This document shows positions 24,508-28,334 of a stretch of 30,116 bases of DNA, piece by piece. The stretch is taken from assembly GCA_045863855.1 (NCBI GenBank), contig BTVV01000074.1:1-30116 (forward strand), given 5' to 3'. The stretch's first letter is position 1. The number at the start of each line of letters is the position of its first letter. The notes beneath the pieces are model-generated. The model was not told the origin of the DNA. It did no database searches and was given only the letters and a program-made list of their open reading frames with translations. This stretch comes from Planctomycetota bacterium. Lineage in GTDB: Bacteria > Planctomycetota > SZUA-567 > H5-PLA8. The position numbers and the translations under genes were made by a program.

Positions 24508-26067
24508 CTATCGGGCGTACTCGATAAAGCGCGATTCTCGGATCATGGTGACCTTGACTTCGCCGGGGTAGCTGAGTTCGCTCTCGATCTGCTTGGCGAT
24601 GGCGCGCGCGGCGGCGTGGCAGGCCTTATCGTCAAGTTCGTCGGCTTTGGCGAGGACGCGGACTTCGCGGCCGGCCTGGATGGCGAAGGCTTTCTCGACG
24701 CCCTGGCGCTGGGTGGCGATTTCCTCGAGCTTCTTCATGCGCTGGATGTACTTCTCGAGGCTCTCGCGCCGCGCACCGGGCCGCGCGGCGCTGATGGCGT
24801 CGGAGACCTGGACGAGAATCGGGTAGAGGCTGTGGATCTCGATATCGCCGTGGTGCCCGCCGATGGCTTCCCAGACTTCGGTGCGTTCGCCCACTTCCTT
24901 GGCGATGTCCATGCCGATCTGCGGGTGGGTGCCTTCCATCTCCTGGTCGAGCGCCTTGCCGCAGTCGTGGAGCAGGCCGCAGCGCTTGGCGAGCTGGATG
25001 TCGAGCTTCAGTTCGGCGGCCAGGAGCGAGCAGATGTTGGCAACTTCCTTGACGTGGTTGAGGACGTTCTGGCCGTAGCTGGTGCGGTAGCGCAGCCGTC
25101 CCAGGAGGTCGCGCAGGCGCGGGTGCAGATCGTGGCAGCCGTACTCGATGGCAACTTCGCGGCCGGTCTTCTCGATCTGGGCTTCGACTTCTTTCTTGGC
25201 CTTGTCGACGGCTTCCTCGATGCGCGTGGGATGGATGCGGCCGTCGACGACGAGCTTCTCCATGGCCAGGCGGGCGACTTCGCGCCGGACCGGTTCGAAG
25301 CAGCTCAGGACCACCACGCCGGGCGTATCGTCGACGATCACGTCGACGCCGGTGGCTTTCTCGAAGGCGCGGATGTTGCGTCCTTCGCGACCGATGATGC
25401 GGCCCTTCATGTCGTCGTTGGTGAGGTCGATGGTGGCGACGGTATTCTCGGCGACGGTCTCGCTGGCGAGGCGCTGGATGCTGTTAAGGATCATCTTGCG
25501 CGCATCGTTCTCGACGTTTTCCTTGGCTCGGTTGAGGGCGCGGATGGTCAGTTCGTTGGCTTCGACGGCGATATCGGCCTCGACGCGCTGCATGAGCATC
25601 TGCTTGGCCTGTTCGGGCGTCAGCCCGCTGATTTTCTCGAGCTTGTGGCGCTCTTCCTTGTACATCTCTTCAAGTTCGGCGGCGCGCTTGTCGGCCTGTT
25701 CGGCGGCCTGCTTGCGGCGCTGCTCGAGGCGTTCGAGATCCTGTTCCTTGCGTTCGAGCTGCCCGAGCTTCTTGTCGAGCAGATTCTCGCGGCCCTGGAG
25801 GCGCTTCTCGGAGTTGCGAATCTCTTCGGTGGACTCCTTGAACTCCTTCTCCATATCTTTGCGTTGCTTGAGCAGGTTTTCGGTTTCCTCGGCACGCATG
25901 CGGGCAAGCTCGGAGCGGCTTTCGTCGAGCAGGCGCTGCTTGGTGCGTTCGGCTTCCTGGCGGGCTTCGGCGATCAGCTTATCGCGGTTGCCGCGGGCGC
26001 TCATCATGCCGGCGAAACCGCCGACGATCAGACCGGCTATGCCTACTCCTATGGTGACGGGTTCCAT
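24508..26067 (-). CDS. rny: Ribonuclease Y
   Basis: ATG 26067 with AGGGG RBS. N-terminal TM anchor, coiled coil, KH motif MKGRIIGREGRNIRAFE, DGRIHPTRIEE, RYRTSYGQNVL, HD motif GLLHDCGK, DAISAARPGARRE, AIQAGREVRV, YPGEVKVTMIRE. Confidence 0.97.
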   Translation of the reverse strand: MEPVTIGVGIAGLIVGGFAGMMSARGNRDKLIAEARQEAERTKQRLLDESRSELARMRAEETENLLKQRKDMEKEFKESTEEIRNSEKRLQGRENLLDKKLGQLERKEQDLERLEQRRKQAAEQADKRAAELEEMYKEERHKLEKISGLTPEQAKQMLMQRVEADIAVEANELTIRALNRAKENVENDARKMILNSIQRLASETVAENTVATIDLTNDDMKGRIIGREGRNIRAFEKATGVDVIVDDTPGVVVLSCFEPVRREVARLAMEKLVVDGRIHPTRIEEAVDKAKKEVEAQIEKTGREVAIEYGCHDLHPRLRDLLGRLRYRTSYGQNVLNHVKEVANICSLLAAELKLDIQLAKRCGLLHDCGKALDQEMEGTHPQIGMDIAKEVGERTEVWEAIGGHHGDIEIHSLYPILVQVSDAISAARPGARRESLEKYIQRMKKLEEIATQRQGVEKAFAIQAGREVRVLAKADELDDKACHAAARAIAKQIESELSYPGEVKVTMIRESRFIEYAR

Positions 26068-26215
26068 GGTGCATCCCCTTATGGCATCGGCGAACGCCGC
26101 AGACCGGAAGCCGGGGGCGGGTGGAACGGCAAGCTGGGGCGCACCCAAACCGTCGGGGCGCTCACGCGGGCCTTGCCGCAGCCGTGCCTCCGCTGCGCGC
26201 TCGATCGCTTGTAGG

Positions 26216-26746
26216 GTGGGCTTCAGCAGACGGAAACGCCGGGGATGCGGATTCGCTTACGCGAATCCCTTTACACAAGGCGCGAGGACGCACGAGCCAC
26301 GGTTCGCTGTACCGTGGTTTAAGGCCCAACTCCCGGGCATGCGGTCCAACGGGCCCCGCCTGCCCCCAACCGGGGACGCAAAATGCGTCTGGCGTCTGGA
26401 GTTACGATTACAGCCGCCAAGTCCTGACCCTCGGATTAACCGGTACCCCCTGCGGGAAACCGGCCCGGCCCGTTGCCGCGATGCTTATCCGGCGGTCGCT
26501 CAGGACCGCTCCCCGGCCTAACGTGAGACCGCAGTCTCGGGGCCGGGGGGCGACGGATTTCAGGCGCTGTGGCGTTTCATGCCCTGACGCCTTGCACGCT
26601 TTGCATAGGCCGTATTCGTACGGCGCTCGACGATTTAGTCCTTGCTTAAAGCAATGGGGTCACCCACCCCATTCGGCTCCCAAACGAAGCGTTCTCGAGG
26701 CTGCAACAGAGTGCATGTTCATTCACGCACTCTTAATAGCCCACGT
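26216..26746 (-). ncRNA. Candidate large (~530 nt) highly structured non-coding RNA upstream of rny
   Basis: No credible ORF. Strong promoter directly upstream. 5' GUGGGCU (26744-26738) is complementary to 3' AGCCCAC (26222-26216). More than 10 local hairpins and at least two nested long-range helices are visible by eye. Confidence 0.7.
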
Positions 26747-26752
26747 GTACGC

Positions 26753-26781
26753 ATTCTATGCACGGCGGGCATTTACGTCAA
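26753..26781 (-). promoter_or_regulatory. Near-consensus sigma70 promoter driving the ncRNA/rny transcript
   Basis: TTGACG (26781-26776), 17-nt spacer, TAGAAT (26758-26753). Predicted TSS near 26746, 2 nt before the 5' closing strand. Confidence 0.85.
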
Positions 26782-26841
26782 GCTACGTACAGAGCGGGAT
26801 GCGCAACGATTAACATGTTAGGGTGATGGACGGATATACGG

Positions 26842-27273
26842 TCAAGCGTCGGCTTGGCGCTTAAGCAGTTCGATGAGCTTCGGCGCTTCGTGCTTCTCGC
26901 CCACTCCGATACCGGGACAACGCTGCTTTTCCTTCTCCCACGCCGCCCAGCTCTTGAGCACTTCGGGCCAAAAGGGATAGTCGCGGCACTGCTGCGGGCG
27001 AACCGGATAGACCCCGCAGCCGCCGTCGCCGAGGAGCACGCAGTCGCCGTTCTTGCGCTCCCGCAGGGATTTCTGCCCGCGGTAAACCTCGCGGACATGC
27101 AGCCGCTCGAACTCGTCGGGCGGGAGCTTCATGAAACCGGCAATCTGCGCGATCTCCAGTTCGGTAACCCAAACATAACCGGGCTCGCCGCCGCAGCAGC
27201 GCGTGCAGCCGCTCTGACAGGAAAACTGCACACCGGACTTGTACCAAGGCGACGATGCGAACGCGGCGCTCAT
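26842..27273 (-). CDS. YkgJ-family cysteine-cluster (CxxxCxxCC) Fe-S/Zn protein
   Basis: MSAAFASSPWYKSGVQFSCQSGCTRCCGG..DCVLL..CGVYPVRPQQCRDYPFW..CPGIG. ATG 27273 overlaps the pssA stop (ATGA). Confidence 0.9.
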   Translation of the reverse strand: MSAAFASSPWYKSGVQFSCQSGCTRCCGGEPGYVWVTELEIAQIAGFMKLPPDEFERLHVREVYRGQKSLRERKNGDCVLLGDGGCGVYPVRPQQCRDYPFWPEVLKSWAAWEKEKQRCPGIGVGEKHEAPKLIELLKRQADA

Positions 27274-28334
27274 GCGGGGGGCGCTTCCTCGTTGGCGGGC
27301 TGGGAGTGGGTACCGGATTCGGGCGCTTCGGTGCGCAGCGGCGCGGCCGCGAGTTCGGCGGCCGGCACCTGGCTTTCGCTTTCGGCCTGGACGCTGGCGA
27401 CCCATTCGGGCGGGCGCTGGCTGGGAAAGAGCTGGTAGCGGATCTCGTTCAGGACGCCCATCAGCATGAAGCCATTGAAGCCGGCGGCGAGGACGATCTC
27501 GTGCTGCATCACAGTGAGCACGATGCCCAGGCCGATGATGAGCAGGTGCATGAACGAGCGCTTGCCGCTGAGCAGCTTGTCGCCGACGTGGATGTAGTGG
27601 ACGCGGCTGATCATCAGGACGCCGATCAGGAGCATGACAAAGGGCATGGCGAGGAGGATCAGGTGCGAGATTTCGGAGGAACAGATCCAGCGCAGAAGCG
27701 GATTGGCCAAAAGATCGGGCGAAGCGGGAGCGACGGCTCCGGTCACGCCGTTGGCGGCCGGCGCCAGGAGGACCATGATCCCGGCCACGCAGCCGGCGGC
27801 GGCGGGCGAAGGGATGCCGAAGAAGAAGTCGCGGTGCCCGCTTTCGGATTCGACGTTGTAACGCGCCAGACGCAACGCGGCGCAACAAACGTACACGGCG
27901 AGCATGGGCCAGACGTAACGGTCGAGCAGCACCACGGGCATGTCGGGGGCGAAATGATCGATTGCGGCTTTCACCAGCACGGCCGGAGCGACGCCGAAGC
28001 TGACGACATCGCAGAGGCTGTCCATTTCCATGCCGAACTTGGAGGTCGATTTGGTCCAGCGCGCGACGCGCCCGTCGAGCGCGTCGAAGATCATGGCGAG
28101 GAAGATCAGGAGGCCGGAGTAGTAGACGCAATCGGCGGCGGAGATGACGCGGAAGGTCTGGGGCGGGTTGTGAATGCGCATCGCCAGCACGATCGAGGCG
28201 AATCCGCAGAGCAGATTGCCAAGAGTGACGAGCGTCGGAACCACCGCGACGCCCATGAGAAAGCGCCGCTTGAGTTTTTCCTTCCGTGCGCCTTTGCGCG
28301 CATTGCGGAAGCCTTTAAAGCGCAAACTCACCAT
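27270..28334 (-). CDS. pssA: CDP-diacylglycerol--serine O-phosphatidyltransferase
   Basis: PTLVTLGNLLCG, CDP-alcohol phosphotransferase motif DALDGRVARW..S.FGMEMDSLCDVVSFGVAP, LRLARYN, FFGIPSPAAAG. Directly downstream of psd. Start uncertain (28334 or 28256). Confidence 0.9.
   Translation of the reverse strand: MVSLRFKGFRNARKGARKEKLKRRFLMGVAVVPTLVTLGNLLCGFASIVLAMRIHNPPQTFRVISAADCVYYSGLLIFLAMIFDALDGRVARWTKSTSKFGMEMDSLCDVVSFGVAPAVLVKAAIDHFAPDMPVVLLDRYVWPMLAVYVCCAALRLARYNVESESGHRDFFFGIPSPAAAGCVAGIMVLLAPAANGVTGAVAPASPDLLANPLLRWICSSEISHLILLAMPFVMLLIGVLMISRVHYIHVGDKLLSGKRSFMHLLIIGLGIVLTVMQHEIVLAAGFNGFMLMGVLNEIRYQLFPSQRPPEWVASVQAESESQVPAAELAAAPLRTEAPESGTHSQPANEEAPPA

Follow-up and report, generated by a model that had tools for sequence, protein, structure and literature searches.

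Background

In many bacteria RNA decay is initiated mainly by the endoribonuclease RNase Y, and according to PMC10303841 the way in which its level is set is known only for Bacillus subtilis, where the enzyme limits its own mRNA by cutting the 164-nucleotide (nt) 5' untranslated region (5' UTR) and the first ~100 nt of the open reading frame (ORF). In its passages on RNase E, the same text (PMC10303841) describes a conserved stem-loop in the leader of Escherichia coli rne that is recognised by RNase E and speeds the decay of the enzyme's own mRNA. Here we describe a long, structured leader of the RNase Y gene, rny, in a stretch of 30,116 nt (called the window in what follows, at its full length) from a 6.9-Mb metagenome-assembled genome of Planctomycetota. 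The leader is the whole rny 5' UTR, 679 nt with 64.5% G+C, at positions 26068-26746 of the minus strand, and the gene behind it (24508-26067, minus strand) encodes an RNase Y of 519 amino acids with an N-terminal region followed by KH and HD domains. A sequence-only reading of the window had seen in most of this leader a discrete, stand-alone noncoding RNA of ~530 nt with its own promoter. The functional large multi-stem RNA of about that size has been borne out (it is conserved, covarying, closed from 5' to 3' and has its own promoter), but its independence has not. With moderate confidence we propose instead that it is a ~680-nt structured 5' leader of the rny mRNA, made from its own promoter, which would control the production of RNase Y in cis by feedback or through the stability of the message. 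What we observe is that there is such an RNA, that it is co-transcribed with rny and that its structure is conserved and tied to this gene; every regulatory step is our inference.

The comparison with B. subtilis is instructive in both directions. In both cases we deal with a leader of the same gene, transcribed from that gene's own promoter, whereas the sequences of the two leaders are unrelated, and the B. subtilis leader, as PMC10303841 describes it, is a 164-nt RNA with an A/U-rich 5' end and a single stem-loop, to be set against a G+C-rich RNA some four times as long with a helix joining its 5' and 3' parts and a covarying junction. The leader described here, with its 679 nt and 64.5% G+C, thus falls outside the short, A/U-rich B. 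subtilis type of rny 5' UTR, while, like the known leaders of endoribonuclease genes, it forms the 5' UTR of the message for the enzyme itself and is transcribed with it. The closest analogy for a possible mode of working is the E. coli rne leader, likewise a long structured leader of a main decay-initiating endoribonuclease, although that leader belongs to another enzyme family and another phylum, is not known to be closed by a 5'-3' helix, and is represented in Rfam by an rne 5' UTR family that has no match here. By analogy, the leader would be a further and distinct example of the autoregulatory leaders of endoribonuclease genes.

A second comparison is with the large RNAs OLE, ROOL and GOLLD, which are independent genes present across many lineages. 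The likeness is in the size class (around 500-800 nt), in the many stems and in the fact that they were found by structure and not by function. On the other hand, none of them matches here, and the RNA of the window is continuous with an mRNA, always stands before one gene and is limited to one family.

The conserved core and its linkage to rny

The leader contains a three-way-junction core of 78 nt (26486-26563; all features of the leader lie on the minus strand), defined by covariation. P1, its closing stem of 5 base pairs (bp; 26558-54/26491-87), carries two hairpins. Hairpin A (8 bp, 26548-41/26518-11) encloses an inner GAGAC/GUCUC hairpin (26538-34/26529-25) that is also found in the window's closer relatives, and hairpin B (6 bp, 26509-04/26497-92) has a strictly conserved loop, C-U-G-N-G-N. 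In a hand-checked MAFFT alignment of seven sequences, 93.4% of the cells are paired and 13 of the 24 pairs have changed on both sides, which none of 500 shuffles equalled, while partners slid by 1-3 columns pair at only 32-49%. A covariance model built from this alignment (R1) gave an alignment of 24 rows (23 leaders and one spurious row of 18 nt) in which 94.0% of the cells are paired, against 32-45% in slid controls, and 20 of the 24 pairs have changed on both sides (again 0/500 shuffles as high). The larger alignment is fitted to R1 and so biased towards it, and the seven-sequence alignment is free of this bias. The covariation that the sequence-only reading had expected of a functional RNA is therefore strong, and the core structure is under selection.

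The host is one uncultured family of Planctomycetota, known as metagenome-assembled genomes. DNA similarity recovered only the sister genome, G002, at 95% identity (two of 41 genomes, counting the window's own, G000), and relatives were therefore reached through their rny loci and by covariance model. The gene rny is present in 16 of the 17 family genomes, and further rny loci came from genome and metagenome collections, leaving 24 distinct leaders once duplicates had been removed. Run on 62 genomes of the class, a later model, R2, matched 16 of the 17 family genomes with one match each; the seventeenth (G011), which has no match, is also without detectable rny. In the rny loci every match is on the strand of the gene, at a distance of 306-516 nt before its ATG, and the element is present in each of the 11 metagenome relatives with enough upstream sequence. 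Outside the family, R2 gave only two marginal matches, both in G028 (E about 0.0095) and probably due to chance, and R1 at E up to 1 found no match in the rny loci of ten non-family Planctomycetota and five Firmicutes. Of 16 loci, only 10 retain the ykgJ-like gene upstream; the element therefore accompanies rny and not that gene. We also noticed, downstream of rny in two loci (L011:4162-4179 and L121:4259-4276), a lone hairpin like hairpin B (GCGGCC-UUGUGC-GGCCGC) with a weak model score, which is probably a chance resemblance.

The family is, as far as could be searched, new. Rfam 15 (4227 models, among them OLE, ROOL, GOLLD, RNase P, tmRNA, 6S, introns, riboswitches and the rne 5' UTR) finds nothing at gathering score anywhere in the window, and a scan of 25950-26950 with E up to 10 returned only a 12-nt SAM-SAH fragment inside rny (E=7), a chance match. 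The scan thus points to no known family, and the earlier suggestion of an uncatalogued RNA stands. In the accessible parts of the open full-text literature on structured RNAs of Planctomycetes, on RNase Y and on rny leaders, a scope outside which subscription journals lie, there is no description of it, and no papers linking OLE RNA with RNase Y were found. This uncatalogued RNA family is real and conserved, and its small, well-defined covarying core is open to search, probing and mutation.

A protein-coding reading of the same DNA was considered and rejected. Relatives give peptide matches in all six frames and on both strands, with a frame switch between G000 and G002, whose leaders also differ by a 5-base indel; what is conserved is therefore the nucleotide sequence and not a protein, in keeping with the earlier view that no credible ORF exists between ykgJ and rny. 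The leaders of these two genomes are identical at 653 of 679 positions (3.8% divergence). Their rny genes agree at 1500 of 1560, and 57 of the 60 differences fall at third codon positions, that is 57 per 520 codons, so that the leader changes about three times more slowly than the third codon positions of the gene that it precedes.

Transcription together with rny

Six RNA runs hold part of the stretch, and four of them, from four studies, were examined, all having been selected for holding the stretch. The evidence consists of contigs, which carry no strand, no true ends and a single depth figure each. The leader, for which a transcript was sought, is covered in all four runs: by a contig of 1676 nt in X17 (25065-26737), of 742 nt in X15 (25998-26734), of 746 nt in X18 (25947-26690) and of 358 nt in X19 (26357-26714). 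The first three, from three studies, cross the rny start codon at 26067. The leader is co-transcribed with rny.

The start of the transcript is predicted near 26746 by a sigma-70-type promoter, TTGACG-17-TAGAAT (26753-26781, minus strand). This strong promoter, to which the sequence-only reading had already drawn attention, is the sole promoter-like site in 25800-27100, compared with 0.3 expected in shuffles, and a promoter of the form TTGAC(G)-N17-19-TAnnnT lies 220-302 nt upstream of hairpin B in all 24 related leaders. The contigs of two studies end at 26734 and 26737, ~10 nt inside the predicted start, which is a weak hint in support of it. No listed RNA contig crosses 26738-26807; from the lack of cover in this interval, or over much of ykgJ in X18 and X19, absence of a transcript does not follow. 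The region 25800-27100, including the interval between the structure and rny, holds no terminator-like site.

These data bear directly on whether the structure is a long noncoding RNA in its own right, separate or cut from the rny transcript, which would act in trans, for example by serving RNase Y or some other protein as decoy or scaffold. Such an RNA might well have the closed, multi-stem, 5'-3'-paired architecture that is typical of stable RNAs, and the strictly conserved loop of hairpin B is what one would expect of a binding site. A weak hint in the same direction comes from the depth of the leader-bearing contigs relative to those of the rny body in X15 (30.9 against 2.8-7.9) and X18 (23.6 against 2.2-7.5), contig depth being a figure that cannot rank parts of a gene. 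However, the same high-depth contigs, in two different studies, pass the end of the structure at 26216 and stop only 70-120 nt inside the rny ORF (25947-26067), and in X17 one contig at one depth covers the leader and 1 kb of rny. Moreover, there is no terminator, the element has a single copy per genome, in every case with rny, and it is confined to one family, unlike OLE, ROOL and GOLLD. We therefore consider a trans-acting RNA unlikely and the discrete ~530-nt RNA of the sequence-only reading unsupported in that form; since the contigs cross the ATG, no terminator intervenes and the element is tied to rny in one family only, it is better described as a structured rny leader.

The contig ends in the early ORF may be a coincidence, or may reflect a contig break at strain variation. 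They do fall in the zone (the first ~100 nt of the ORF) that is cut in the rny mRNA of B. subtilis according to PMC10303841, and this correspondence too may be coincidental.

The helix between the two ends of the domain

The 5' strand of the closing helix, GUGGGCU (26736-26742), is near the transcript start, from two to eight bases inside it, and its 3' strand, AGCCCAC (26216-26222), is 148 nt upstream of the rny ATG. The closure of the region by these two strands was a central point of the sequence-only reading, and it is supported: the helix is in the predicted fold and is kept through different sequences in different genera. At least six distinct sequence pairs are found across genera, each complementary, the 5' and 3' strands being, in genera other than that of the window, AUGUGGGCUUGGC with GCCAGGCCCCGCAU, GGGCCUGGGA with UCUCAGGCCC, AGUCGAAACGGGU with GUCCGUUUCGACU, GGUUGGACCG with CGGUUCAACC and AUGAGGGUUU with AAACCCUCGU. 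The computed pairing probability of the helix is 0.94-1.0 in G002 and 0.90-0.99 in G001, and in most leaders folded singly the first bases of the transcript are predicted to pair (probability 0.5-1.0) with a partner 38-150 nt upstream of the ATG.

In a MAFFT alignment of 13 whole leaders the 3' strands of this helix are out of register, and the helix was scored leader by leader instead, each 5' end being compared both with the 3' region of its own leader and with the 3' regions of the 22 others. The mean match of the 23 leaders with their own partners was never reached in 20000 re-pairings (14 of 20000 when the target was wider). A helix score of at least 8 is found in 11 of the 23 leaders, against 16% of non-cognate pairs from other clades, and the half of the family in which the helix is convincing includes the window's relatives. 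RNAduplex-type energies separate cognate (-21.5) from non-cognate pairs (-19.9) only scantly in this G+C-rich material. A domain of ~530 nt closed by its own ends is supported.

One could ask whether this is all that the leader does, namely act as a passive stabiliser whose paired 5' end and dense structure prolong the life of the rny mRNA with neither sensing nor feedback. The 5'-terminal pairing is indeed the most widely kept long-range feature of the leaders, and where bacteria employ RNase Y and RNase J, structure at the 5' terminus is known to protect their mRNAs. A related case is that of PMC5737220. Nevertheless, a simple 5' hairpin would do for this purpose, and a domain of 530 nt with a covarying junction and an invariant loop exceeds the need; other lineages, besides, keep equally long and different leaders on rny. 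We regard this explanation as quite improbable.

Two observations concern the 5' end itself. The segment GGCCCGCGUG at 26162-26171 (minus strand), 95 nt upstream of the ATG, is a second possible partner of the first 10 bases of the transcript, and as an alternative to the AGCCCAC strand it could, to judge from its complementarity, give a two-state arrangement. In four leaders of a distant subclade (L008, L009, L010 and L016) the transcripts begin with a conserved GAGGGYUUARUG, which is similar to the ribosome-binding sequence that these transcripts also carry (GAGGGGGU or GGGAGGGAU) and could be a 5'-end mimic of the Shine-Dalgarno sequence.

The predicted fold

The minus strand (551 nt) folds at -259.2 kcal/mol, compared with -226.6 +/- 7.4 for 100 dinucleotide shuffles (z -4.4), better than its controls as had been anticipated, though the plus strand folds nearly equally well (z -4.3), and folding energy alone therefore proves neither an RNA nor its strand. 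The orientation is settled by other means: many core pairs are G-U on the minus strand, where the plus strand would have A-C, and all model matches are on the rny strand. G-U pairs in the covarying core and the strand of the matches thus agree with the minus orientation that the sequence-only reading had deduced from G-U pairs.

The near-equality of the two strands, together with the noise of duplex tests in G+C-rich material, is the best that can be said for a functionless spacer whose structure is simply what any G+C-rich sequence gives. Against it stand the compensatory changes in 20 of the 24 core pairs, the presence of a single copy in 16 of the 17 family genomes, the divergence about three times slower than that of rny third codon positions, and transcription in four RNA runs, so that we see hardly any chance of its being right.

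The minimum-free-energy fold contains every helix that had been listed earlier, and all the local hairpins are complementary at the places given for them. Directly after the closing-helix strand and an A/U-rich linker comes a first hairpin of 10 bp (26733-24/26717-08; 26708-26733), and other leaders folded singly have a long hairpin in its place. The second, of 8 bp (26673-66/26660-53; 26653-26673), is preceded by a conserved GUUUGGGA motif that is visible in the leader alignments; in the relatives' predicted folds, GGGA would pair with UCCC just upstream of the closing 3' strand. The fold also has hairpins at 26624-19/26614-09 and 26317-11/26303-297, and an 8-bp hairpin with a GUAA loop (26268-61/26256-49; 26249-26268), in which we find the sole double compensatory change between G000 and G002, from U-A to C-G at 26265/26252.

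The inner long-range helices (26595-87/26283-75, 26582-77/26295-90 and 26475-67/26355-47, with their extensions, within 26275-26595) are a less certain part. They are complementary and present in the window's own fold, which adds GCAUGA/UCGUGC beside 26595-87/26283-75, and to this extent the earlier proposal was right; their support comes from that fold only, they do not align across genera, and their differences between G000 and G002 are confined to G-U-neutral changes and three breaks at helix ends. The 27 substitutions that separate the two leaders fall at unpaired bases in 12 cases, keep a predicted pair in seven and break one in eight. In many genera, local folds show a family-style extension of P1, in which -130..-52 pairs with +19..+75 on either side of hairpin B. 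Compared with shuffles it has a mean z of -1.1 (+0.86 in the window), at most 5 of 200 shuffles being as good in 7 of 23 leaders, and it is possible that this extension, where predicted, competes with the window's inner long-range helices.

Proposed function

As the structure is part of the rny mRNA, a role in cis is the economical reading. In the mechanism that we propose, the base-paired 5' end would shield the message from 5'-end-dependent decay, and the exposed A/U-rich linkers, together with the conserved junction, would form the site at which free RNase Y, or a partner protein, recognises the enzyme's own message. Free enzyme or partner would then cut or destabilise the rny message at the linkers or junction, and the level of the enzyme would in this way feed back on its synthesis. 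More speculatively, loss of the G-rich 5' strands might free C-rich strands to mask the ribosome-binding site. A candidate for such an anti-Shine-Dalgarno strand is GCAUCCCC (26241-26248, minus strand; 8 bp), a perfect complement of the ribosome-binding region GGGGAUGC at 26078-26071, which is the best of all 14-nt leader windows against the Shine-Dalgarno region (-21.3 kcal/mol) and is predicted to pair with it in one fold.

Several points weigh against this proposal, and the reader should have them together. The speculative pairing of GCAUCCCC would be weakened in the sister G002. As an anti-Shine-Dalgarno strand, the closing 3' strand falls within the best 2% of leader windows in only 7 of 16 leaders, and the one described here (fraction 0.24) does not belong to these. 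A tightly paired leader with 64.5% G+C also differs from the substrate of RNase Y in B. subtilis, a leader rich in A/U. With eight of the 27 substitutions breaking predicted pairs, the full fold is unreliable in detail, and the closing helix is not clear in about half of the family, nor in particular in the more distant subclade. The strict conservation of the hairpin-B loop suggests a specific partner, which is not necessarily RNase Y. Finally, the RNA evidence consists of contigs from runs chosen for the stretch, and the regulatory steps are deductions.

The question of the partner leads to another cis-acting possibility, that the leader senses a small molecule, or a protein other than RNase Y, and alters rny translation or stability in response. 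Three-way junctions with conserved unpaired bases are, as is well established, common in riboswitch aptamers and in protein-binding leaders, and the core is the best conserved part of this leader, at a narrow distance from the promoter (220-302 nt) and a variable one from the ATG (306-516 nt). Yet the conserved junction is accompanied by no terminator and by no conserved helix over the ribosome-binding site, that is by no conserved expression platform that we could find; the conserved bases are in a hairpin loop and not in the junction; and no riboswitch or leader family of Rfam 15 matches at E up to 10. We know of no precedent for ligand sensing by the leader of an RNase gene, and we consider such a sensor doubtful.

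A bolder variant combines a switch operated by the nuclease with a stable RNA left after cutting. RNase Y would cut at an exposed linker or in the early ORF, upon which the G-rich 5' strands (GUGGGCU, GGGA) would release the C-rich strands (AGCCCAC, AUCCCC) onto the ribosome-binding site, and the closed domain of ~0.7 kb would persist in high amounts and bind RNase Y or a partner through the loop of hairpin B. We offer this as a tentative idea with a rather small chance of being correct. If it were true, a class of large regulatory RNAs would have been born from an mRNA leader, with sister classes before rny across Planctomycetota.

Other rny leaders in Planctomycetota

Other Planctomycetota also have long leaders on rny. 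They share with the leader of the window a strong promoter 400-660 nt upstream, conserved blocks and long-range helices to the ribosome-binding region, but they have no detectable homology to it, either in sequence or in the core. The presence of different long leaders on rny elsewhere in the phylum points to regulation through the leader as a general requirement of this gene. Control of RNase Y in this manner would accordingly seem to be widespread and, structurally, far more elaborate than in B. subtilis.

Two further types were found, neither with an Rfam match (of the longer type only L034 was scanned). The first, of ~380 nt, occurs in seven loci (L052, L057, L061, L063, L070, L077 and L088; for example L061:1934-2335), with strongly conserved blocks and a promoter resembling TTGAC...TACGAT, from which it is 412-440 nt to the extrapolated start. 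Compensatory changes occur in 20 of the 95 pairs of the consensus fold of this type, and its long-range helices place the 5' part beside the ribosome-binding site; a C-rich block stands just before a GCCCGG hairpin and an AAGGGGG ribosome-binding site. The second, of ~650 nt, is found in L034 and L036, where a perfect TTGACA-17-TATAAT promoter is 650-660 nt upstream of rny. In this type a UCCCCCUC segment faces GAGGGGGU at the ribosome-binding site, in what looks like an anti-Shine-Dalgarno pairing.

The upstream neighbour

The leader is bounded on its two sides by the rny start at 26067 and by the end of the ykgJ-like gene at 26842, both genes being on the minus strand. The ORF of 429 amino acids at 26842-28131 (minus strand) is an over-extension of the kind typical of G+C-rich DNA, and only its last 143 amino acids match the YkgJ-type family and the relatives. 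The ykgJ-like protein itself is thus 143 amino acids long, with the CxxCxxCC motif of the YkgJ type and its actual start at 27273.

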